Shown one piece after another: positions 2,844-49,427 of a stretch of 64,000 bases of DNA. The position numbers and the translations under genes are program-made. Origin of the DNA: Escherichia phage vB_EcoM_UP17; sequence record LR746137. One strand, given 5' to 3'. The notes beneath the pieces are model-generated. The model was not told the DNA's origin, did no database searches, and saw only the letters and a list, made by a program, of their open reading frames with translations. Within the stretch, counting starts at the first letter, position 1, and each line of letters begins with the position of its first letter.

Positions 2844-2850
2844 TAAAAAA

Positions 2851-2879
2851 GGGAACCCGCAAAGGTTCCCTTTTCTTTT
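2851..2879. terminator. Bidirectional terminator between convergent genes
   Basis: GGGAACC-CGCAAA-GGTTCCC hairpin flanked by A-run and T-run. Confidence 0.6.
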
Positions 2880-2906: not shown

Positions 2907-3794
2907 TTAGAATGGGATATCATCGTCGAAGTCCATTGGAGGTTCTTCTTGATTGCTTGGAGTTGGTTCTGGTTGTGGTTCAGGTTTCTTCTCTTCTTTC
3001 TTCTCTTCTTTCTTAGGTTGTTCTGCGGAACCACGAATGGCAGCAGCAACTTTATCAGACAGAGCCAGAACTTTACGAGCAGAGTCAATCAGATCTTCTA
3101 CAGATACAGTCTTAATGGTATGGTCTTTACAAGCATTGAGAATAGCGTGACCAACAGATGCCCCAAGATCATAATCATTAATATCAACGCCACGAGATTC
3201 AGCAATTTCAGATTTCAGCGTGACAGTTGCAGATTGAACAACCCCAGCGATATCGAAAGCATCGCCTTTAACACCATTACGAATCAGTTCCAGTGCACCA
3301 TTTACTGCGTGACCAGTTTCCAGACCTACAGTATCACGTTTTTTATAGGACTGCTTAGGAGCAGCATCGTTGGAACCTTTATTGCCAGAAGATTTGTTAG
3401 ACTTCTGAACACCATCGGTAGACAATACTGTAATACGAGATTTTTTAGTATTGTAGTAAGTCTTACCGCCTTTATTATCAACGCGATCAATATCAATACT
3501 TACTTCTACACCTTTTTCAATAGTGATCCAATTATCACCTTCTTTGACTTGCAGGTTTTCATAACCTTCTTTCAGTTCAATGTCACCAAGAGAAATCCAA
3601 ACACCTTTCTCATCTGGTTTAGCACCTTTCTCTTTCAGAACAAGAGAAGCTCGGTGAGTTGAAACAATCGTTTTCCCTTCCCAATGAAAAGTTTTAGGTT
3701 CAGCGAATTTATCCAGTTTAACGTAGTCTACGATACCAGTTGCATAAGTTACGGTTTTGCCTTTACGATCAGTTTCAGTATTAATTACGGACAT
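2907..3794 (-). CDS. Single-stranded DNA-binding protein-like
   Basis: 295 aa, Gly/Lys-rich linker, acidic tail ending MDFDDDIPF (identical to bacterial SSB tip). Confidence 0.55.
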   Translation of the reverse strand: MSVINTETDRKGKTVTYATGIVDYVKLDKFAEPKTFHWEGKTIVSTHRASLVLKEKGAKPDEKGVWISLGDIELKEGYENLQVKEGDNWITIEKGVEVSIDIDRVDNKGGKTYYNTKKSRITVLSTDGVQKSNKSSGNKGSNDAAPKQSYKKRDTVGLETGHAVNGALELIRNGVKGDAFDIAGVVQSATVTLKSEIAESRGVDINDYDLGASVGHAILNACKDHTIKTVSVEDLIDSARKVLALSDKVAAAIRGSAEQPKKEEKKEEKKPEPQPEPTPSNQEEPPMDFDDDIPF

Positions 3795-3810
3795 TATTAT
3801 CTCCTCTACA

Positions 3811-4203
3811 TTACATTAATTTTGCACAGAAAGAGCGGAGTCTTTCCATATCATCTTGCTCTAACAGGTATTTACCTTTACCTATTCCAACTCCAATTTC
3901 ACCATTAGGAAAATGAACTATTTGCACTGGGAAACCTCCGAGTTTAATTGTGGCAGCTTTGCCTTCTTCGTCTATAACGTTTCGGATTGTATCTTGCAGT
4001 GAAATGAATTCTTTGTTTGTAACAGTGGTTTCAATTATTTCAGATGTTTCGACACGAGCAGTTAGCTTCTTGTTTCCACCTTGAATAACCAAAATTTGAA
4101 AATAAAAAGAGTTGTCAAGACCTACAACATTTTTCTCAACTAGTGTCAAACTGGTATAGTTTCCATAAACAGTTTCAACAGCTATCTTAGAACGTTCAGT
4201 CAT
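3811..4203 (-). CDS. Hypothetical protein
   Basis: 130 aa ORF in co-directional gene string. Confidence 0.45.
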   Translation of the reverse strand: MTERSKIAVETVYGNYTSLTLVEKNVVGLDNSFYFQILVIQGGNKKLTARVETSEIIETTVTNKEFISLQDTIRNVIDEEGKAATIKLGGFPVQIVHFPNGEIGVGIGKGKYLLEQDDMERLRSFCAKLM

Positions 4204-4248
4204 TGAATGCTATCCTATCATAAAATGTTTAATATTGTCAAGCTTTAA

Positions 4249-4842
4249 TTACCAAGGAATATCATCTTCTTCCAATCTGGTATCTACTTGAGGTGGACGT
4301 GGAACCTTAACCTCTTTCACAAAACGAAGATATGGGAAACGTGTAGCAATTTTAATAACATGTTTGGCATCTTCTCTAACATCTTTGTGCAAGAAGCAGA
4401 TCCCTGTTTCCAAGGTTGTTTCAAAATCTTTAGAATAATAACAGTCCTTCCCATCAAATGCAGCCTGGCAGATGGAAAGATCAAACTCATTTAGAAAGGT
4501 TGTCATTACATTTGGGTCCATGATCATAAGGTTGCAAAGCTGACCGTCACGTTCAAACTCAAAAACGTGTTTAAGACCAGTGCCACCTTCATAACTATCA
4601 GAAGCCTCTTTGTTTCCTAGTTTACGAATATTGGTTCCCATTAAAGCAGATGCAATTAATCCTTGTATTTGTTCTTCAGTCCGATGTGCAGGAAGGGATG
4701 TATAGAAATCCAGATCACGTCCAGCAATATCAAGAATACGCCAATCACGAACAGCACCGCCAGCCAAGACAGAATTAGGATCAGCGATCTTTAATACGGT
4801 AAGAATTTCTTTGGCAATATTGATTTGTTTTGATTTAGTCAT
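4249..4842 (-). CDS. Hypothetical protein with SSB-tip-like acidic C-terminus
   Basis: 197 aa, ends LEEDDIPW. Confidence 0.5.
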   Translation of the reverse strand: MTKSKQINIAKEILTVLKIADPNSVLAGGAVRDWRILDIAGRDLDFYTSLPAHRTEEQIQGLIASALMGTNIRKLGNKEASDSYEGGTGLKHVFEFERDGQLCNLMIMDPNVMTTFLNEFDLSICQAAFDGKDCYYSKDFETTLETGICFLHKDVREDAKHVIKIATRFPYLRFVKEVKVPRPPQVDTRLEEDDIPW

Positions 4843-5230: not shown

Positions 5231-5443
5231 TTAATCTTCCTCCAGATCAATTTCATTATAACAATGTATGCAGAAACCATCATTGTGCATATGTTGTTCA
5301 TAAGACATATCTTTACCACAAGACCAACAACGGATATCCCCATCGTCCCATTCACGTTCTTCTTCGCCTTCAAATTCATCTGGTAGGTAAGGCATACCAA
5401 AGTAGTCTAAATCGTAACTCATATCTTCTCCTACCGAGTCCAC
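5231..5443 (-). CDS. Small zinc-ribbon-like acidic protein
   Basis: 70 aa, CxxC...CxxC, acidic termini. Confidence 0.4.
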   Translation of the reverse strand: MDSVGEDMSYDLDYFGMPYLPDEFEGEEEREWDDGDIRCWSCGKDMSYEQHMHNDGFCIHCYNEIDLEED

Positions 5444-6009
5444 TCCTTACGTTGTTCAATATGTTCGAGCATATCGTTATACAATGTTTTAAGATGTGGA
5501 ACAACTCTTTGATCTTCTGTTTCAAAAAACTTTGTAAGCTGTTCTGCTTTAGCTTTCAACCAACAAAGATGTGCTTGGAGTTCCGTATCGAAACGACCGA
5601 GTGTTATGATACGTCCTCCGATTTTAATATGGGCCTTATACTTCTTACGATCCTTCTCATAATTACATCCTACCATTTGACCTGACTTTTTTCTGTAGGC
5701 TAAAAACTTATTAAGATTTCCAGAAATCATTAAGCAAGTATCAGGGGAGTAGACTCCCCCTCCCATAAGATCCTTATCAAGTTCCGAGTTTTCCCAGTCG
5801 TCCCAAGTTTCCAACCAAGAGTAGAAGTTGGAAAACAGCTTCCACTCTTCACAAACCGTCACTCCATGGTAAACGACATCTCTTGCCTGTTGGCAAGATG
5901 AATAACACCTTCCCAACATTGCCATCCATTTCATATAAGCAGGGTGCATAACCCCTTCAGGAGATCTTGCAGTAATGCTCCCATCAAAAACACCGTGACC
6001 ATAAACCAT
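5431..6009 (-). CDS. AP2-domain DNA-binding protein, homing-endonuclease-like
   Basis: YMKWMAMLGRCY...VTVCEEW motif plus AP2-like YKAHIKIGGRIITLGRFDTELQAH; sits next to polymerase gene. Confidence 0.45.
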   Translation of the reverse strand: MVYGHGVFDGSITARSPEGVMHPAYMKWMAMLGRCYSSCQQARDVVYHGVTVCEEWKLFSNFYSWLETWDDWENSELDKDLMGGGVYSPDTCLMISGNLNKFLAYRKKSGQMVGCNYEKDRKKYKAHIKIGGRIITLGRFDTELQAHLCWLKAKAEQLTKFFETEDQRVVPHLKTLYNDMLEHIEQRKEWTR

Positions 6010-6038: not shown

Positions 6039-8636
6039 CTAATGGCAACTCGCCCAGGAATTACCCACATCATATCCAGCAGTAAGCTGAACATTAAGAT
6101 TGTAAAATTCTCCAGCCTTAGTAACAGCTAAGGCAGCAAGTTCACCTGCCCGACTATAGGCTGTAAACCATCCACCTTTGGGAGATTCATGAATGTTAGC
6201 CCAAATTTGTCCCGTCTCTTTTTCCTTATTATGCTTCCATTCTTCAACTTTAGCAAGGCATTCTTTATCAATTTTCTTTTGTTCTTCAGGATCGTCTACT
6301 TTCTTCCAACCTAATGATTCAGGTGAAAACCATTTGAATTCTACAAGGTTACGAGAAACTTCAAGCTGGGCTTCATCGTGATATGCAATCATTTGTTGCA
6401 CGAAGTCTTTATTCTTCCAGTCATCTTTAAAGAAGTCAACACTTAGCCCTTCTTCTTCGATCATGTCATCATAAATAACCATTGCACGTTTAGCACAGAT
6501 AACCCCACCACTTTGGAACAGAGAGTTAAGAATCGCGTGAGCAGAACGAGTAGGAACCTTACGACCGTCAATACCCAAAACATATTGTTTACCAGTCTTA
6601 ACCCAAAAATCGTTTAAACGTTCTTTAAGACGCGCCAATGGGAATGCAGCTTCCCAGAAAGCATCGAACACCAATTGACCTGTAAACTTGTCGCTACCAA
6701 TTGTTTTAGCAACCTTGTCGGCTTGTGCACCATAGGTAATACCATACTTAACAGATTTAGCAGGACTACGTTCAAATTTACGTCCAATAGTTTCAGTGAT
6801 ACGTTTTGCCATCATTGTGTGAACATCGTTAGGTTTCTCTAACAACAGAGCGTTACAATATTCGTGTGGCTCCGGCTCGTACCGCCAACAGTAGTGTGAT
6901 TCAATTTTTGCTTCCAAAGAGTCGAAGTCGTAGCCGATCTGGAAGTATTTAGGAACCTCTACACCAAACAAGTTACGCATCTCCCACCCAAACAAAGATG
7001 TGACACGAGGAATATTAGCTACAGATCTATGCTTCATACGAGAGGTTGCAGCATCACATGTAGCGGCTGGGGTAGGAATACGCCCATCCGCCCTTACTGC
7101 GGCTAAGAAACCTTTATCGTATTCTTGATCTTCTTCATCTTCTTCCCAATCAGCACCGCCACCTAAAATAGAGTTCCTACGATGCTTATACGTTAAGTAT
7201 TCTACAATCTGTGTAGCATAAGGGAATTTCTCACCTAAAGCTTGCAGGTTAGGACAGATTTCTTTTTCCTGACCTTTGGTAAAACATGGGTTAGTCAATA
7301 CTTTAAGACCGCGACCTTTACCTTTTGCTATACGCTCTTGAATCTTCCTTTCCAGGGTTTCCGGTGTGCACTCCAGATGATCACAACGATCCTGACAAAA
7401 ATTAGAAGATAGGGTTTGCTCAACGTAAGCTCGAATACCTTTCTGAAGTTCTTCCTCGCTCTTTTTAATCTTGGTGCCAGATTTAAGAGTCAAGTCTTTA
7501 TCTTTATATTCAGACGGTACCCAACCTAATCCTACAAGCCAGTTTTTAATATGGGTTGTATCGTTCAATGTTGCAGGAATGTTAGGATCACATAGAGGCT
7601 CATCTGCTGCAACTGGCAGTTTCCACTCTTTCCCCAACATAACTAACCACCAATCGCCATCCCTCTCTTCCAAATGACCATCATGTTTCTTAGCAAAATT
7701 GATCATATGGTTAGTTGGCTCTAAGTTCTTTTTAATTTGCAACTTAGGTGGAATAAAAGCCTTAAGATAACCTTTTGTTGCTGGTTTAGGTGGCAAAATA
7801 GGCTCAACAAGTAAACGAAGACGCTCCATTTCTGCATCCAAAAAAGCAAGGTTCTCTTCTGCTTGTTTCATGTTAAAAGCAAACCCACGGTGTTCCTGGC
7901 GTGTAATAATGTCTGCTACACGTTGTTCAAGTTCAAATGGACCTTCCCATTTATCATAATCACCCCATTCTTCCATAAGGTAATTATATACGCTCGTATT
8001 GGCTTTGTTGTCATAGATACAGTAATAAAGCATATCCGCAGCAAAAGTCTTAAATCGATCTTCTTCTGGAATCTCTTTACGGAAATCTATTTTTACATCA
8101 CCACCTGCTTTTCGAGAAAGTGCTGCCAAGCTATGTCCTGATTTGCCCTCAATCTTTCGATCTGGGTTTAACACTTTACTCAAAATCAAGGAGTCAATAA
8201 GTTTTACCTTATTTTTGCCCCACGTATTATATTTAACACTGTAATCTAATCCATAAAACAGTTTTGTAGCCAACCAGTCGTAGTTGATACCGTTGTGAGC
8301 CACAGCCATTTCAACCAGATATTCAGGCTTGTCTTTAAAATAACCTTCATGATTAATAAAATCTGGGAAATCTTTTAGTTGAAAATGTGTGTAATCTTGC
8401 GCCACATACTCTTTAAGAACATATGTGTATTTACCATCTGACTCTTCATAAGGACGCCCATCAAAGATGTATTTAGGGCCATCGTGGAAAGCTACTATTT
8501 CTCCTGTTTCATGGTTCTCTAAGACAATACAGTGCATTTGAAATGTGTCTTTGAGACGATAAGGACTAGCTAAATAATCAATAGTGTCATTATTCAACAA
8601 TCCGTTTGCTTCAATATCCCATGTAAACTTACTCAC
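6039..8636 (-). CDS. DNA polymerase, family A, with 3'-5' exonuclease domain
   Basis: 865 aa, Exo I-like WDIEANGL, motif B-like KYGITYGAQ, motif C-like YHDEAQLEV. Confidence 0.85.
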   Translation of the reverse strand: MSKFTWDIEANGLLNNDTIDYLASPYRLKDTFQMHCIVLENHETGEIVAFHDGPKYIFDGRPYEESDGKYTYVLKEYVAQDYTHFQLKDFPDFINHEGYFKDKPEYLVEMAVAHNGINYDWLATKLFYGLDYSVKYNTWGKNKVKLIDSLILSKVLNPDRKIEGKSGHSLAALSRKAGGDVKIDFRKEIPEEDRFKTFAADMLYYCIYDNKANTSVYNYLMEEWGDYDKWEGPFELEQRVADIITRQEHRGFAFNMKQAEENLAFLDAEMERLRLLVEPILPPKPATKGYLKAFIPPKLQIKKNLEPTNHMINFAKKHDGHLEERDGDWWLVMLGKEWKLPVAADEPLCDPNIPATLNDTTHIKNWLVGLGWVPSEYKDKDLTLKSGTKIKKSEEELQKGIRAYVEQTLSSNFCQDRCDHLECTPETLERKIQERIAKGKGRGLKVLTNPCFTKGQEKEICPNLQALGEKFPYATQIVEYLTYKHRRNSILGGGADWEEDEEDQEYDKGFLAAVRADGRIPTPAATCDAATSRMKHRSVANIPRVTSLFGWEMRNLFGVEVPKYFQIGYDFDSLEAKIESHYCWRYEPEPHEYCNALLLEKPNDVHTMMAKRITETIGRKFERSPAKSVKYGITYGAQADKVAKTIGSDKFTGQLVFDAFWEAAFPLARLKERLNDFWVKTGKQYVLGIDGRKVPTRSAHAILNSLFQSGGVICAKRAMVIYDDMIEEEGLSVDFFKDDWKNKDFVQQMIAYHDEAQLEVSRNLVEFKWFSPESLGWKKVDDPEEQKKIDKECLAKVEEWKHNKEKETGQIWANIHESPKGGWFTAYSRAGELAALAVTKAGEFYNLNVQLTAGYDVGNSWASCH

Positions 8637-16500: not shown

Positions 16501-17103
16501 TTATGGACATTCATACCATTCTTTTTTACCACCGAAGGCCATCACCACATCGCAAATATCCAGACCAGCTTTACCTACACCATATGCTTTCAGCTTCCAT
16601 TCCCCATCTTCACGAACCAGCGAAGCCACGTGGCAGATTGTGTTGCCAGCTACTTCAGGAGCCAGGAAGTCAAAATCCAGAATTTCCACATTGCGCTCGG
16701 AGTCGAAGATTTTAAGCATACCTTCAGAAGCATGACCAAAACGTTTCAGACCTGTATCATCATCAATGGTCAGAACAAAGGCAATCTCTTGTGCATCAGG
16801 AGAGATTTTAGCCAGAGTAATATCAATCTGCTCCATGCTGCCAGTTCCATCACGAACATCGTCACCAGCGAAGGTAGAACGTTCAGGATCAAACTTGTTA
16901 GCATAGCAAACCAGATGACGTGCAGACAGCATTTCAGGATTGCCAGCGGCATTATGACGACAAACCAGTGCACTTACATCCAGATCCAGTTTAGAATCAG
17001 ATTTCCAAGAGAATTCCAGGCGCAGTTCTTTCAGAGCCGGAGCAACTTTCTTCAGGGAAATTTTTTCGCTAGAACCTTTTTTCAGGGAAATTTTATCAGT
17101 CAT
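16501..17103 (-). CDS. terD: TerD-family protein
   Basis: 200 aa, ISLKK N-terminus, LDLDVSA, Ca-binding-like GDDVRDGTGSMEQI. Confidence 0.7.
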   Translation of the reverse strand: MTDKISLKKGSSEKISLKKVAPALKELRLEFSWKSDSKLDLDVSALVCRHNAAGNPEMLSARHLVCYANKFDPERSTFAGDDVRDGTGSMEQIDITLAKISPDAQEIAFVLTIDDDTGLKRFGHASEGMLKIFDSERNVEILDFDFLAPEVAGNTICHVASLVREDGEWKLKAYGVGKAGLDICDVVMAFGGKKEWYECP

Positions 17104-17118
17104 CTTTTGTCTCCTCTA

Positions 17119-17388
17119 TTATTTAAGTGTAATACCAGTTACAGTCAATTCTACTTCCAAAAGCTTAGATGTGTTTTGGATTGATACTAATTGTGCATGA
17201 TGGTTTAGTTCTACAGCAGAATAATCATTTTCCCCATCATCTACTTTTAAATAAACAATGATTTCACTAAGGTCTAAACCATTTTCGTCAAATGCATTTT
17301 CATAGACGAAAGTATCTCCTACATCCAAATCTTTAATGGTAAGGCATCGTTTATTTACTTTTTGCTCATCAATTTCGAAGTTTAACAC
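17119..17388 (-). CDS. Hypothetical protein, paralog of 18410-18688
   Basis: Shared DLDVGxTF...GLD...TxITLK with 18410 ORF. Confidence 0.45.
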   Translation of the reverse strand: MLNFEIDEQKVNKRCLTIKDLDVGDTFVYENAFDENGLDLSEIIVYLKVDDGENDYSAVELNHHAQLVSIQNTSKLLEVELTVTGITLK

Positions 17389-17617
17389 TTCTTCCTCCTA
17401 ATGTTATCTCCGGTTTGTATATACGAAGAATTATAGCATTTTCATTTTCTTTGTCAACCCATTCTTCATAATCGGGCCATACATGAATCTCTACTCTACT
17501 TACAATATCTTCCATTCGCACAGTCCCAATGAAATACTCTTTGAGACTGCGCATAATGAAAGCTTCTCTCTCGCGCCAATAATTTTCTACGACTTGAGAG
17601 GCAAGCTCGTCGATCAT
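17369..17617 (-). CDS. Hypothetical protein
   Basis: 82 aa ORF. Confidence 0.4.
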   Translation of the reverse strand: MIDELASQVVENYWREREAFIMRSLKEYFIGTVRMEDIVSRVEIHVWPDYEEWVDKENENAIILRIYKPEITLGGRSVKLRN

Positions 17618-18408
17618 TTTTTAGCACCTACTTTAACAACCCACTCTCCGAACTCTTCAGATAAGAGTTTGTCATAAAGCTCTGAATCTGTCAAGTCTAA
17701 ATCTTTAATGCCAATAAAACCAACATTATCATAAGCATTTGCCAGTTCTTTCAGGAAGCCAAACTTCTCATTACCAACGCCAACCATGAACCAATAAATA
17801 GGTTTATTCTTATTCTCTTCAATAAGACGACGAACAGCACTAGGATCACCATTCTCACCATCCGTTTGGAAGAATACAACACCAGGGGTAACGTCAGCAC
17901 CTGGTTCAGATACAGCTACAACCTTTTCACGCTCTACAGATACTGTTTCAGTTTTACCAAGCAGACGATTAAAGAAGCCTTTCTTTGGAGCCTCCTCTTG
18001 TACCACTTGTTTAGTGGTAATATATTTGGTAACAGTGCCAAAATACTCGTCGTAGATATCTGCCATTACAGGGGCGTAGTTTGTTCCACCTCCGATACGA
18101 ACATTACGCATACATTTACCAACATAATCATCGTAAACGTCTGCTGTTGCTGGGGTAAGCTCTTGAGAACTCGTATTGAAGGCCCACATATCAATTTGTT
18201 CATTATCGTCGAACAGCATACCAAAAGGAAGCAGTTTACCTACAAAATCACTCACTACCCCACTAGAATATAGACCATGCATACTACCAGAAATATCTAG
18301 AGCACATGCTACACGAAGAACAATCTTACCTTCATTCAGGTTCTTATTCTTTTTCAGAGAGAAAGCAAGGTTTTCTTGACGTTTTTTCAGGCTGATTTTC
18401 TCGGACAT
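17614..18408 (-). CDS. vWA-domain protein (TerY-like)
   Basis: MIDAS motif DISGSM, ISLKK N-terminus like TerD. Confidence 0.55.
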   Translation of the reverse strand: MSEKISLKKRQENLAFSLKKNKNLNEGKIVLRVACALDISGSMHGLYSSGVVSDFVGKLLPFGMLFDDNEQIDMWAFNTSSQELTPATADVYDDYVGKCMRNVRIGGGTNYAPVMADIYDEYFGTVTKYITTKQVVQEEAPKKGFFNRLLGKTETVSVEREKVVAVSEPGADVTPGVVFFQTDGENGDPSAVRRLIEENKNKPIYWFMVGVGNEKFGFLKELANAYDNVGFIGIKDLDLTDSELYDKLLSEEFGEWVVKVGAKK

Positions 18409-18409
18409 A

Positions 18410-18688
18410 TTATTTCTCCTTCTTAAGTGTAATATTGGTAACTTCTAAATCTACTTCCACCATATTTGTATCTGGTGGGATGCAATGAGTATAGCCTCGT
18501 TGTGCTAGTGATCCATTAATACAGATCGCACTGTTTGTGGAATTTTTAATGAACACCAAGTTACGGTAGGTATCCAACCCTGCGTCTTCATAGGCATCAT
18601 AATACATGAATGTGGCCCCTACGTCAAGATCTTCGAAAGCAATAGGTAAATCCTGACCTTTTTCTTCTTGAATATTGAATCTAAACAC
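18410..18688 (-). CDS. Hypothetical protein, paralog of 17119-17388 (start revised to GTG)
   Basis: GTG at 18688 sits 5 nt after GAGGAGG and removes the 74 nt overlap with upstream gene. Confidence 0.4.
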   Translation of the reverse strand: MFRFNIQEEKGQDLPIAFEDLDVGATFMYYDAYEDAGLDTYRNLVFIKNSTNSAICINGSLAQRGYTHCIPPDTNMVEVDLEVTNITLKKEK

Positions 18689-19244
18689 GCATACCTCCTC
18701 TACCAATTTTGAAGCCCAAATCGTAAGCTTCCTTAGTGATCTTTTGTAACTCACTTATAGGAAGTGTTACAAGAGGATCATCTTCTTCAATTTCCATCTT
18801 GTCATCTTCTGTTTCAATGAGAGTATTATGCACTTTGTGATAAGGGTTGTCAACACGTTTAAACTTATTCTTTTCTGTGCTGAAAAAACAATCTGGATCT
18901 TCTTCACCATCACCCCAACCTTGATTAGGATCTCCGTCAGATTGTTCTGTAGGGATTTCACCTGTAAAGTACTCTTCCAGCACCATAGCAATACCGTCCC
19001 TTGGATTTGAGGAATGCATTAAATCACAAACCTTACCCCAATCCATAGCCCATTCGAACCGTTCACGAACGCCATTTTCATCCTCTTTTCCAGAGAAAAC
19101 ACAACCATAACTATCATAGTTGCCATACATCTCTTCAATAACAACACCGTCTTTCAAAAGAAAGAGGTAGCAAGGTGATCCGTCGAAAGAAGTAGAAAGG
19201 GCAGCTTTGCCCGATTCTTTGCACAAAAAACTAAAACAACCCAT
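18681..19244 (-). CDS. Hypothetical protein
   Basis: 187 aa, acidic C-terminal half. Confidence 0.45.
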   Translation of the reverse strand: MGCFSFLCKESGKAALSTSFDGSPCYLFLLKDGVVIEEMYGNYDSYGCVFSGKEDENGVRERFEWAMDWGKVCDLMHSSNPRDGIAMVLEEYFTGEIPTEQSDGDPNQGWGDGEEDPDCFFSTEKNKFKRVDNPYHKVHNTLIETEDDKMEIEEDDPLVTLPISELQKITKEAYDLGFKIGRGGMRV

Positions 19245-23125: not shown

Positions 23126-24100
23126 TTAAACAGCAGCTTCTTCTTTTTCAGGGAAGATAAAGCTTGCAATAACACCAAGAGCTAATGTGCCTAGAACAAT
23201 CATCAAACTTACGTTAGGGGAAATATCATGCGGGAGGAATGACCACTTGGCATGAAGTGTTTCACCGAACGGGTGATACATAAGTTTAGCACCAACAAAC
23301 ACCAGAACCACAGCAACAGCTTTCTCTAAGTGAACCAAATATTTCACAGCAACACTTAACACAAAGAAAAGTGCACGTAAACCAAGAACAGCCATCAGCA
23401 TTGCAGAATAAACTAGCAGAGGTTCTTGTGTCACACCGATCACAGCCGGAACTGAATCAAAAGAGAAGACAATATCTGTAAGCTCAATAACAAACACACA
23501 AAGAAGAGCAGGAGTTGCATATTTAATACCATTCTTAATGGTAATGAACTTTTCACCATCCAGCGCATTGTGCACAGGCAGAACTTTACCTACTAAACGA
23601 ACAGCCCAATGCTTAGAGTAATCAATATCCTCTTCTTCGTCACCACCTTTGATGATAGCCACGGCAGACCAAGCTACAATCAAACCGAACAACACTTGGA
23701 CCGACCAATGAAGGTTAAACAAAGCGGTCCCTGCTGCAACAAAAATACCTCGGAAGACAATGGCTCCTGCAATCCCCCAAAGTAGAATTTTATGTTGGAG
23801 ATGTGTGCTCTTAATTCCAAAGCTTGCAAAAATTGCCATGAACACCATCAGGTTATCTACAGAAAGACTCTTTTCCAACACATAACCACTTAGGAAAAGC
23901 GCGGCAAACTCTTTACCATGTTCTACCCAAATGAATGCGTAATATCCTAAAGCTAAAGCAATCCAAAAAACAGACCAAAGCAAAGCAGATTTAATTCCAA
24001 TTTCTTTATTCTCTTTATGACCAAAGAAATCGATACCAATAGACAATGCCAAAATACTAATTAAAACAACTACATCAATAATTGGGAAACCGAGTTGCAT
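23126..24100 (-). CDS. terC: TerC-family integral membrane protein
   Basis: Multiple TM helices, duplicated motifs SVDNLMVF and FSFDSVPAVIGV. Confidence 0.8.
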   Translation of the reverse strand: MQLGFPIIDVVVLISILALSIGIDFFGHKENKEIGIKSALLWSVFWIALALGYYAFIWVEHGKEFAALFLSGYVLEKSLSVDNLMVFMAIFASFGIKSTHLQHKILLWGIAGAIVFRGIFVAAGTALFNLHWSVQVLFGLIVAWSAVAIIKGGDEEEDIDYSKHWAVRLVGKVLPVHNALDGEKFITIKNGIKYATPALLCVFVIELTDIVFSFDSVPAVIGVTQEPLLVYSAMLMAVLGLRALFFVLSVAVKYLVHLEKAVAVVLVFVGAKLMYHPFGETLHAKWSFLPHDISPNVSLMIVLGTLALGVIASFIFPEKEEAAV

Positions 24101-24179
24101 TCTTTTCTCCTCTCTTTGCGGGGAACTATTCCCCGCTTCATGTGATATATCTTACTCTTTTTAAGAATTATGTCAACAC

Positions 24180-24407
24180 TTATTTTGTTGAATGAGAGGA
24201 AAAGATTCCTCGTAATACCGCCAGAATAAACGAAACACAAACCACGGTCCAGAAGGTTACTGGGACAGTGATATCTGCATGACCCATAACTTCAGCAACA
24301 TAGTTGTAAGCCAGCAACAGTAACCAAGCTGGAATCAAACTAAGCATAAAAGCAATAACAAAAAAGCTTACCACTGCAACAATACCTGCAAAAACACCCA
24401 TACTCAT
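24180..24407 (-). CDS. Small membrane protein
   Basis: 75 aa, two hydrophobic helices. Confidence 0.45.
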   Translation of the reverse strand: MSMGVFAGIVAVVSFFVIAFMLSLIPAWLLLLAYNYVAEVMGHADITVPVTFWTVVCVSFILAVLRGIFSSHSTK

Positions 24408-24413
24408 CTCCTC

Positions 24414-24887
24414 TTAAAGTTTATAAATAGTCACATCGTGACCTGTTTTTACTAAAGTTTCTTCAATCATCACTTGGATGATAGCCCAATTGCCTCCAGC
24501 ATATCCAGCGCCAATCATAGGTAAGCCGATCTTACATTTTTGGTCACGGAGAAGCAAATCATTAGCCATAGCTATTAGTGCATCGTAAAGTGCATCATAG
24601 TCCAACTGACGACCTTTAGCATTGTATCCGTAACGGTATTGCCCGTATAGATTATATACCAAAGGGTCTGATTGTTCGTCTGGCACCCCTAAACTAAAAC
24701 AACCTAGTTTACTTTGATCACCAGCCATTGTGTCTAAGTCTGCTGCATATGCGTAAGGAAATGCTTGTTTGATTTGTGGGGCAATACCTGCCCCCATATT
24801 ACACATACAGTTGCAACAATGAGCAATAACAGTTACTTCACCTGCTTTAGCGGCATCAATAAGATTACCTGTTTTCATTTTAAGCAT
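24414..24887 (-). CDS. Macro-domain protein
   Basis: VIAHCCNCMCNMGAGIA matches macro-domain signature. Confidence 0.55.
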   Translation of the reverse strand: MLKMKTGNLIDAAKAGEVTVIAHCCNCMCNMGAGIAPQIKQAFPYAYAADLDTMAGDQSKLGCFSLGVPDEQSDPLVYNLYGQYRYGYNAKGRQLDYDALYDALIAMANDLLLRDQKCKIGLPMIGAGYAGGNWAIIQVMIEETLVKTGHDVTIYKL

Positions 24888-24899
24888 TTTAGCTCCTTA

Positions 24900-25727
24900 T
24901 TACAGAATGTGTTGTTTTGTGTAACGATCCAAGAATTCAAAGTTTTCAGCATACTTTGAAATTCGGTTGTAACCTTCTCCCAAACATCCGAAGAAAAGTT
25001 GCTCTACATAGTAGTGTGGCAATTGGCTAAGAATGATTTTGAAGTCTTCGTGATTTTGGCCCATAAGATACTTAATAGGACGAACAAGGCACTGTGCATC
25101 ACGTTCTTCATTAATCATTTTAACAAACGCTTCTGGTGTATTAATGTAGTTAAAATTCAGTTTAGCTTCGGTATCTGCTTGATTACCTTCATATTTTGCA
25201 AAATACAAGAAGTAAACATCATTTTTAACTTGATTTTCATCAAGGATCTCAATCAGTTTGTCTTCATGCGTTCCAGTGATATTTACATCATCAATGAATA
25301 CAAGCTTCTTATCACCCCAGAATTCTTTGTTGCAGTAGAATGTATCCCCATCAATAAGTTTCTTACGACTAGCTTTATCCAAGAAACCATAATCGTTGAT
25401 ATAGCTAACTTTACGATGAATAATGTCCAGTTCTGCTGAACGACCTTGATCATATTGTGATTGCAACATGTTAAAGTAATTAATAAAATGATCTGTCATC
25501 ATTGTTGCAGCATTATGCACATGGTTGTAAGGAGAAGGAATGATAACAAATTGTTCCCCAATATGTTTCATTGCCACTTGAGCAAAAAACTGAAGTGCCA
25601 ATTCTTTACCCATACGACGCGCGGCTTGGTTACTACCAAATTTCAATTTTGAATAATCTTGGATATCAAAAGTAGCAGTTTCCAGGTCATCAAATTTATT
25701 TGCAAAAATTTGAGTTTGATTACGCAT
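24900..25727 (-). CDS. Phosphoribosyltransferase-like protein
   Basis: PRPP-binding-like KKLVFIDDVNITGTHE. Confidence 0.45.
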   Translation of the reverse strand: MRNQTQIFANKFDDLETATFDIQDYSKLKFGSNQAARRMGKELALQFFAQVAMKHIGEQFVIIPSPYNHVHNAATMMTDHFINYFNMLQSQYDQGRSAELDIIHRKVSYINDYGFLDKASRKKLIDGDTFYCNKEFWGDKKLVFIDDVNITGTHEDKLIEILDENQVKNDVYFLYFAKYEGNQADTEAKLNFNYINTPEAFVKMINEERDAQCLVRPIKYLMGQNHEDFKIILSQLPHYYVEQLFFGCLGEGYNRISKYAENFEFLDRYTKQHIL

Positions 25728-48956: not shown

Positions 48957-49169
48957 ATGGCTAATATCCGCACACTGTTAAAAAATGCAAGTCAAGTTTT
49001 ATTTTCAGATGACGAGTATTTCAATAAAGACATTACAGGCGTGAAGAATATCAAAGATGTAAAAAGTGTTATGGGTATATATTGCAATGTTAAACGTGTT
49101 GGAACGTTCGGTGATAAAGTATTGTACCAATCAGGTGATTACAATTTTACTTTGACGATTATTTCATAA
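48957..49169 (+). CDS. Early small protein
   Basis: 70 aa, SD AGAAGAGAG. Confidence 0.5.
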   Translation: MANIRTLLKNASQVLFSDDEYFNKDITGVKNIKDVKSVMGIYCNVKRVGTFGDKVLYQSGDYNFTLTIIS

Positions 49170-49174
49170 AACGC

Positions 49175-49235
49175 TTGCAATACTGCAAAATAAAGTAAAC
49201 TGTATTACATCAAGGCGGCGGAATGGTCCACCGCC
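49175..49235 (+). promoter_or_regulatory. Promoter-hairpin unit (weaker promoter)
   Basis: TTGCAA then TAAACT-like, hairpin 49212-49235 with AATGGT loop. Confidence 0.4.
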
Positions 49236-49259
49236 TAACAAAGAGAAGAGGAAAATATC

Positions 49260-49427
49260 ATGATCACTTTCGCTACCCGTGAAGCCGCTCGCAACGTTGC
49301 ACGTAAAGTTAACGCCGCCAACCTGGGCGCTACTTTTAAAGCCCCGGTGAAAGATGAATCAGGCAAATGGATCTTCCCTGGTCTGCGTCACGCTGATAAG
49401 CTAGGCACTTTAAGCCTTAAAAAATAA
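49260..49427 (+). CDS. Early small basic protein (55 aa), not in ORF track
   Basis: ATG after AGAGAAGAGG; begins MITFA like the next gene. Confidence 0.4.
   Translation: MITFATREAARNVARKVNAANLGATFKAPVKDESGKWIFPGLRHADKLGTLSLKK

Follow-up and report, generated by a model that had tools for sequence, protein, structure and literature searches.

The window analysed here (the whole stretch of 64,000 nucleotides of Escherichia phage vB_EcoM_UP17, sequence record LR746137) encodes two proteins whose C-termini resemble the acidic tip of bacterial SSB, the protein that binds single-stranded DNA. One of them is an SSB-like protein of 295 amino acids (aa); the other is a 197-aa predicted nucleotidyltransferase (NTase) related to the anti-Gabija protein Gad2. 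We predict that the NTase carries a functional docking motif of the kind formed by the C-terminal tip of SSB (SSB-Ct). This prediction is well supported, because the tip is conserved behind a variable linker, because the tail is predicted to be disordered, and because tryptophan-ended tips also occur on bona fide SSBs. The features concerned are the following:

2907..3794, minus strand: 295-aa SSB-like protein, with a beta domain resembling the oligonucleotide/oligosaccharide-binding (OB) fold (residues 1-130), a linker, a four-helix domain (156-253), a Pro/Glu/Lys-rich disordered linker and the tip
2910..2936, minus strand: MDFDDDIPF, tip of the SSB-like protein, closing with the hexapeptide DDDIPF that is published as the SSB-Ct of E. 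coli (PMC5872125)
4249..4842, minus strand: 197-aa minimal NTase of the Gad2 family, with a head and neck like those of class II CCA-adding enzymes; motif A GGAVRDW...DLDFY
4252..4311, minus strand: disordered linker and tip of the NTase, residues 178-197, VKVPRPPQVDTRLEEDDIPW; predicted local distance difference test score (pLDDT) below 50; DDIPW is kept and the linker varies
4252-4275, minus strand: tip LEEDDIPW of the NTase, as read from the codons

Two SSB-type tips at the ends of unrelated proteins

The open reading frame (ORF) of the SSB-like protein, 2907..3794(-), has the C-terminus ...SNQEEPPMDFDDDIPF / ...EEPPMDFDDDIPF, i.e., PPMDFDDDIPF, in front of a TAA stop at 2907-2909. The NTase ORF, 4249..4842(-), ends in ...PRPPQVDTRLEEDDIPW, i.e., RLEEDDIPW, with its stop at 4249-4251. 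Since W197 is followed directly by TAA, the motif is truly terminal and has a free carboxylate, as it does in all tip-bearing homologues. The acidic run, Ile and Pro of the NTase tail EEDDIPW match the DDDIPF pattern, the last residue being Trp instead of Phe. An earlier note on this DNA had described unrelated proteins ending in MDFDDDIPF and LEEDDIPW and lying two genes away from each other. Both ends are confirmed in the sequence at the coordinates above, a single gene (the 130-aa ORF 3811..4203(-)) lies between the two, and the proteins are indeed unrelated: the 197-aa one has an NTase fold, the 295-aa one an OB-like beta domain and a helical domain.

Only these two acidic-IP[FW] ends were found among the 404 window ORFs of at least 40 aa, and only two among the 861 ORFs in bases 1-143,471 of the closest relative, Shigella phage SF1-1 (genome of 145,957 bases). 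A small ORF of SF1-1 beside the anaerobic ribonucleotide reductase genes (L133, 49110-49334, 74 aa at its longest; annotated CDS gp204, 49143-49334, 63 aa) ends in ...GGDELQRLPF; this weak LPF end, which has no acidic run, is probably unrelated.

Conservation of the tip among NTase homologues

Among ten homologues at 58-96% identity, nine end in DDIPW and one in DSFPW, and the 10-20 residues ahead of the tip vary in both length and sequence through indels and substitutions. Several homologues have F, Y or M six positions from the C-terminus (FQDDIPW, FEDDIPW, YKDDIPW, MDDDIPW), where the SSB tip DFDDDIPF has F. In a 153-kb viral contig (L125), a 59% identical NTase ends in DDDIPW, and the SSB-like protein in DFDDDIPF. 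Citrobacter phage Tr1, which belongs to another lineage of Stephanstirmvirinae, retains only ...KPKDIPW behind a linker of quite different sequence. Whether the tail would prove conserved had been left by the earlier note as the point on which its idea might fall, and with the tip retained even in Tr1 (KDIPW) behind such variable linkers, the idea is not refuted. At the codon level, purifying selection on the tip was tested with no informative outcome, the stretch being too short and the DNA nearly identical.

These data bear on the simplest alternative, namely that the resemblance to SSB is a chance one and has no function. The motif has only five residues, but the amino-acid frequencies of the window itself put the expectation for a DDIP[FW] C-terminus at 4.9e-7 per protein, which makes 1.3e-4 per 260-gene genome; the same end is found on many phage SSBs (see below), and the tip is kept at 58-96% identity and beyond despite the variable linker. 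Chance is therefore extremely improbable, and conservation effectively refutes it.

Across the wider family, tip-like ends are scattered: PDDIPW in P0136, SNDIPW in P0241, ESIPY in P0153, KPIPF in P0229 and DLIPF in P0289. The nearest relatives of these five representatives and of Tr1 are tipless, so that the association of the tip with the enzyme must be recurrent or long retained. Neighbours of the tip-bearing representatives frequently end in other acidic-aromatic motifs, WDEEF, SDDDF and EFAW among them. Overall, we read the IPW tip as conserved within lineages, recurrent across the family and replaceable. As to the scope of this comparison, tblastn with P0134 and P0145 found no isolates beyond Stephanstirmvirinae-like phages except Tr1, a search of viral contigs for loci related to the distant tip-bearing P0136 and P0241 found none, and the A1 profile scan gave only four loci; the comparison of NTase tails with the tails of their cognate SSBs covers a handful of genomes.

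The distant homologues P0241 and P0251 (L129 6691-7608 and L130 10001-10990) have an extra N-terminal domain of about 100 aa. Both sit among genes for deoxynucleoside monophosphate (dNMP) kinase, thymidine kinase and NUDIX proteins, accompanied by MazG in L129 and by DNA-ligase-like and RtcB genes in L130. Their tails differ, being SNDIPW and SDDDF, respectively. In L130, where the NTase ends in SDDDF, a FEN-like protein ends in DDDYDF; the unassigned protein at the corresponding position in L129 likewise carries an acidic tail with a final Phe.

Tryptophan-ended tips in other viral proteins

The terminal Trp sets the NTase tip apart from that of E. coli SSB, and IMG/VR was scanned for DNA encoding DDIPW followed by TAA, which yielded at least 120 loci (L004-L123). 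In 109 of the 120 matches listed, DDIPW plus TAA is where an ORF of 80 aa or more truly ends, in most cases behind a low-complexity linker. Chance matches would be expected chiefly in short ORFs that are out of frame. Proteins with a DDIPW end are thus common in viral contigs; they form at least 25 unrelated clusters and include SSBs of several kinds: PF00436 SSBs (the W-ended SSB of L101 matches PF00436 with E 6e-37), gp2.5-like and Enc34-type SSBs, and three other PHROG SSB families. Judged from these proteins, Trp is a natural variant of the SSB-type tip, although for E. coli it is not one shown.

The same end is carried by proteins that are not SSBs, namely a 601-aa DEAD/ResIII helicase, a dNMP kinase, an AAA_5/CbbQ-type ATPase, Pam3 gp34-like proteins and DUF6511. 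Moreover, tips may come in pairs: a Pam3 gp34-like protein (DDIPW) adjoins an AEP primase ending in EEEIPF, and an SSB ending in DDDIPW lies near a PolB-exo-like exonuclease ending in LDEIPF. Such evidence suggests that SSBs widely share their tips with other DNA enzymes of phages, among them helicase, primase, exonuclease, kinase and ATPase. Neighbouring genes with one W-ended and one F-ended tip were seen in L026, L028, L029, L087 and L101.

The 197-aa protein as a small nucleotidyltransferase

The 197-aa protein matches the 'nucleotidyltransferase' groups PHROG 10174 and PHROG 1614, and no SSB family; its fold is that of an NTase and not an OB fold. Pfam and NCBIfam gave no above-threshold family: the match to PF01743 (PolyA_pol head) stays at 13.8 bits against a cut-off of 23, and only one of 13 close homologues reaches E 1e-3 with this profile. 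Matches of the NTase profile to PDB sequences were confined to spurious ones to Cas12f and were rejected. The AlphaFold2 (AF2) model has a pLDDT of 68 and is good for approximately residues 1-120; the folded core ends near residue 175, after which comes a proline-rich linker (PRPPQ), and residues 178-197, with values below 50, are predicted to be disordered. Against the PDB, Foldseek returned class II CCA-adding enzymes, with T. maritima 3h39 at the top (TMq ~0.5 over ~200 columns). The alignment covers the N-terminal half of these 415-450 aa enzymes (TMt ~0.28), and nothing is left over for their body and tail domains. In BFVD, the relatives are phage proteins of ~140-430 aa, mostly 170-230, labelled as poly(A)-polymerase head or tRNA nucleotidyltransferase, with E values down to 7e-13. 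The NTase profile retrieved 1053 relatives at E <=1e-3 from 1.8 billion cluster representatives, nearly all of them 170-250 aa long.

Motif A, GGAVRDW...DLDFY, is invariant in the tip-bearing clade. By eye, motif B (RRD) is not recognisable, and the motif D/E-like stretch is EDAKHVIKIATRF, in which His stands at the position of the templating Arg of EDxxR; we take the CCA-enzyme consensus of motif D/E to be EDPLRxLRAxRF, with the templating Arg where the NTase has His. The protein thus looks like an apparently active mini-nucleotidyltransferase, as far as can be predicted from sequence, and the invariance of its catalytic motif in the tip-bearing clade points to an enzyme and not a decoy.

Given this fold, the protein might instead act on RNA, either in CCA-type repair of tRNA 3' ends or as a poly(A)-type enzyme, in which case its tail would lie outside the SSB interactome as a different docking motif or a lineage-specific remnant. 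CCA-adding enzymes are the best PDB fold matches, GenBank annotations read 'tRNA nucleotidyl transferase / poly(A) polymerase', and the close relative SF1-1 has ten tRNA genes together with an RNA ligase/phosphoesterase cluster. Yet the protein has no tRNA-binding body or tail domain (197 aa against ~400), falls short of the PolyA_pol cut-off and is devoid of a visible RRD; CCA is already encoded in all ten SF1-1 tRNA genes; the NTase gene lies in a replication block and not beside tRNA or RNA-repair genes; and the tip is too conserved and too SSB-like for a remnant. We consider a role in RNA metabolism improbable. In SF1-1, the segments 17011-19118 and 23595-25485 (L132) hold the ten tRNA genes and a phosphoesterase/RNA ligase/ATPase cluster reminiscent of RNA-repair modules; in the window, no tRNA genes were found.

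The flexible tail brings up another alternative. The tails of E. coli SSB, T7 gp2.5 and T4 gp32 fold back on their own DNA-binding domains, and the acidic tail of the NTase, which is flexible and long enough to reach the core, might likewise cover a nucleic-acid-binding surface and keep the enzyme autoinhibited until displaced. Regulation of DNA binding by an acidic C-terminal tail is established for gp2.5 (PMC10359462). The NTase core (residues 1-177), however, is itself acidic, with a net charge of about -4 and an isoelectric point of 5.6; what is conserved is the specific D-I-P-W-COOH end rather than overall charge, as KPKDIPW of Tr1 illustrates; and the AF2 model does not place the tail on the core. 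We hold an intramolecular regulator to be no likelier than an RNA enzyme, that is, an improbable explanation.

Relationship to Gad2

The link to Gad2 came only from precomputed PF26128 ('Gad2') matches on NTase homologues, among them P0009, P0241 and P0251 (marked 'weak' for the last two), and was then checked with hhalign. The family profile aligned with a verified Gad2 from B. laterosporus, whose sequence was taken from the supplement of the preprint 10.1101/2023.05.01.538930, with a probability of 72.6% and E 3.2e-5 over 124 N-terminal columns (Gad2 residues 15-142). Gad2 is a 400-aa anti-Gabija protein of Bacillus phage SPbetaL7 with a predicted nucleotidyltransferase domain, and inhibition of Gabija is known only for this protein and its B. 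laterosporus homologue (10.1101/2023.05.01.538930). Its mechanism was still called unresolved in 2026 (PMC12904381).

The window's NTase and Gad2 are both phage-encoded and share the same type of N-terminal nucleotidyltransferase domain (AGG...DLDxYF...FDxxxC). They differ in length: verified Gad2 proteins have 394-400 aa, and their C-terminal region of ~250 aa is absent from the 197-aa protein. We therefore regard the latter as a relative that shares the catalytic domain of Gad2, and not as a demonstrated Gad2. In the portion of the supplementary tables of 10.1101/2023.05.01.538930 that was available, no Gad2 homologue with an SSB-type C-terminal tip was seen. The same portion (Supplementary table 9) includes homologues of anti-Gabija 1 (Gad1) from gut siphoviruses of RF39 hosts, which have an internal SSB-tip-like stretch, ...ELGEIDDDIPFEHK...

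The SSB-like protein

The other tip-bearing protein is atypical as an SSB. Pfam found no SSB domain in the 295-aa protein, which matches PHROG 4477; only its tail (the last ~40 residues) matches SSB PHROGs, and the NCBIfam enterobacterial SSB profile NF006533 likewise aligns through its positions 132-177 of 177 to residues 254-295, i.e., the tail only. The AF2 model (pLDDT 78, from a 58-sequence alignment) gave weak OB-fold matches for the beta domain 1-130: 2k75 (probability 1.0, E 0.03), Stn1, D. radiodurans SSB (E 0.085) and a telomere end-binding protein. A DDDIPF-type tip is found in all of the 120 homologues listed, down to ~30% identity. On this modelled architecture, it seems reasonable to call the protein SSB-like. 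The 'SSB' of this phage group thus combines the lack of a Pfam SSB domain with a divergent OB-like domain and an extra four-helix domain (156-253) ahead of the tail, and the latter domain could itself be a receptor for tips. A recent capture of the tail from a chromosomal ssb gene was considered and discarded, as there is no sign of it: of 5426 E. coli genomes, no more than 32 have an ssb gene that matches the last 107 bases, and these matches cover 38-49% of the query at 82-90% identity.

In 16 of the 120 homologues listed, the DDDIPF tip is not terminal and is followed by 15-17 aa of the type (A/S)P(I/L/V)GL(Q/P)Y..., e.g., APIGLQYGRNFLHCF (L131 4001-5399; L134 5061-6498; L002 5026-5973, from VEcB; P0013, P0025, P0041, P0053, P0060, P0066 and others). 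At the two loci inspected, a 164-aa ORF with CxxC and HH motifs begins inside the extension; it is HNH-type by eye and has no Pfam match. A mobile endonuclease may have inserted exactly at the conserved tip-coding DNA and thereby created the extension, which would bury the Phe carboxylate of the SSB-like tip. In the phages with the extended protein, the NTase is the only protein of the module with a free IP[FW] end. The SSB-like gene of the window has no such insertion.

Genome setting

The best match of the window is Shigella phage SF1-1 (98.8% identity), and phAPEC8-like myoviruses of E. coli and Shigella match at 95-99%; by these identities, the window belongs to a phAPEC8-like E. coli myovirus of the genus Phapecoctavirus, Stephanstirmvirinae. 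Both tip genes sit at the 3' end of a leftward block, whose order can be read from annotated SF1-1: primase/helicase, a hypothetical gene, Dam-type methyltransferase, DNA polymerase I, HNH endonuclease, three small ORFs, NTase, the 130-aa ORF, the SSB-like gene and a terminator. The NTase gene thus lies between the genes for the DNA polymerase and the SSB-like protein in one terminated block. Besides the tip genes, the following features of the window belong here:

6039..8636, minus strand: DNA polymerase I-type polymerase (ORF; annotated in SF1-1 as DNA polymerase I), leading the same leftward block
3811..4203, minus strand: conserved 130-aa ORF between the two tip genes; PHROG 16560 (E 1e-76), no known domain
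4212..4241, minus strand: sigma-70-like promoter match TTGACA-18-TAGGAT with TG, lying just upstream of the 130-aa ORF in the space that separates it from the NTase gene; a consensus match only
2847..2874, no strand: hairpin terminator at the end of the block that runs from the polymerase through the NTase to the SSB-like gene, shared with the convergent tail-fibre gene

Herein, the trio of NTase, 130-aa ORF and SSB-like gene is syntenic across Stephanstirmvirinae, the order being confirmed in FKP3, VEcB, SF1-1, L131 and Tr1, and the 130-aa ORF always stands between the other two. As for the promoter, a scan of the region gave a total number of matches not above that in shuffled sequence. We infer the DNA polymerase I-type protein (6039..8636) as a candidate phage partner for the acidic tails. 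Between the polymerase and the NTase, the window has an HNH endonuclease gene (5431-6009) that is present in some relatives and absent from others; many 98% identical phages align in two pieces, amounting to 82% of the query. It looks like a mobile homing endonuclease.

A proposed role for the NTase tail

Taken together, these observations induce us to propose that the tail is a docking tag which tethers the enzyme to an SSB-tip-binding protein at sites of phage replication or repair, a reading that we find the likeliest and to which we give about an even chance. A precedent exists in phage T7, where gp4 attaches to basic patches of the T7 polymerase by its acidic C-terminal tails (PMC12593628). 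In our scenario, the NTase core would extend to about residue 175 and be followed by a flexible linker of ~20 residues capped by (acidic)-D-I-P-W-COOH. This tip would enter a pocket of the type that takes DDDIPF-COOH of SSB, in which the aromatic residue would meet a hydrophobic site and the carboxylate a basic residue. Either the host or the phage would provide the receptor, a protein of replication, recombination or repair, and the NTase would in this way be held where SSB-coated single-stranded DNA (ssDNA) and 3' ends undergo processing as the phage replicates. As a built-in side effect, the tip would compete with SSB tips for the pocket. We infer the binding of the NTase to an SSB-tip pocket, the identity of that pocket and the nucleotidylated target alike.

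Several points weigh against this proposal. The Justusliebigvirus orthologues, which have the same gene order and 35% identity, do without IPW and end in LDDAWDDDKI, LDQAWDDL or FNNEEFKI, although the SSB-like protein of these phages still has DFDDDIPF. Most of the 150 NTase family representatives carry unrelated tails. In every DIPW member, the terminal residue is W and not F, and a Trp end may fit poorly into E. coli pockets built for Phe; a receptor of its own is possible. The AF2 model of the NTase core is only moderate at its pLDDT of 68, and a tip of this kind would take the enzyme to tip receptors, not directly to ssDNA. Part of this evidence may also be informative about the receptor. 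Since Justusliebigvirus, on similar hosts, keeps the SSB-like DFDDDIPF but changes the tail of the enzyme, an obligatory host target is argued against, and the invariance of Trp together with the loss of the tip in Justusliebigvirus hints at a receptor that is lineage-specific and possibly phage-encoded.

The earlier note had supposed that the 197-aa protein may use tip mimicry to recruit or compete for host partners of SSB. In its purely competitive form, the tail would mainly fill the SSB-tip pockets of host proteins such as ExoI, RecQ, RecJ, PriA or SSB-sensing defence proteins, which would then no longer be drawn to SSB-coated phage ssDNA; the enzyme body would be of secondary importance. 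It is true that the tip resembles the host tip over 5-8 residues, that the family is named after an anti-defence protein, and that phage SSB is, according to a review, sensed by several defence systems (PMC12904381). Nonetheless, the tip-bearing clade keeps the catalytic motif strictly, a host-type tip is already on offer from the phage's own SSB-like protein, presumably in far larger quantity, and Justusliebigvirus grows on similar hosts without the IPW tip. A decoy is unlikely in our view, if somewhat less so than an RNA enzyme or an autoinhibitory tail. What stands of the mimicry idea is the SSB-Ct-type docking motif itself, conserved, predicted to be disordered and matched by W-ended tips on SSBs; a pure decoy is less likely than an address tag, because the 197-aa protein is a conserved, apparently active NTase of the Gad2 family.

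It is tempting to go one step beyond the docking tag and to view the SSB tip as a portable tag grafted onto accessory enzymes. Such a tag would deliver a Gad2-type NTase to a host SSB-tip binder, to a component of a defence system or to the DNA ends being handled, where the enzyme would nucleotidylate its target and block immunity that senses DNA ends or SSB, such as Gabija. This extension is speculative, and we rate it as unlikely as the decoy; if it is true, the tail would tell where the Gad2 family, with its unsolved mechanism, does its work. Bacterial genome maintenance recruits its proteins chiefly by way of SSB tips, and a conserved handle of this type on a non-SSB enzyme gives direct experimental access to a widespread uncharacterised family with more than 1000 cluster representatives. 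The only characterised relative being Gad2, whose mechanism is open, the tail offers a rare hint at the place of action of such enzymes.

Comparison with known systems

Finally, we would like to set the NTase and its tail beside the systems that they resemble. With the class II CCA-adding enzymes and poly(A) polymerases (PF01743), the NTase has in common the fold of head and neck, motif A (GGxVRD...DxD) and a stretch like motif D/E; it differs in being half their size, in having no tRNA-binding body or tail domains, in staying below the Pfam threshold and in its unrecognisable RRD.

In T7, the tails of the gp4 helicase-primase and of the SSB gp2.5 both end in Phe and share sites on the polymerase. 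As in the window, a non-SSB replication protein and the phage SSB both have acidic tails, and the gp4 tail tethers its protein to the replisome via the polymerase (PMC12593628). The T7 motif differs in not being IP[FW], and the T7 proteins belong to the core replisome, whereas the NTase of the window is an accessory protein.

The closest likeness is that to E. coli SSB-Ct (...MDFDDDIPF-COOH): both motifs stand at the extreme C-terminus behind a disordered linker and consist of an acidic run, a hydrophobic residue, Pro and a terminal aromatic residue, D-D-I-P being identical, and some NTase homologues even place an aromatic residue six positions from the C-terminus, as the SSB tip does with its first F. 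Unlike SSB, the NTase is an enzyme with no OB fold, ends in Trp rather than Phe and has a linker of only ~15 residues. In the searchable literature, we came across no account of DDIPW, of SSB-tip mimics or of SSB-type tips in Gad2-family or other phage nucleotidyltransferases, and no description of tip-sharing between SSBs and other phage DNA enzymes. Overall, the SSB-Ct motif, the sharing of tails in T7 and the Gad2 family were each already known.

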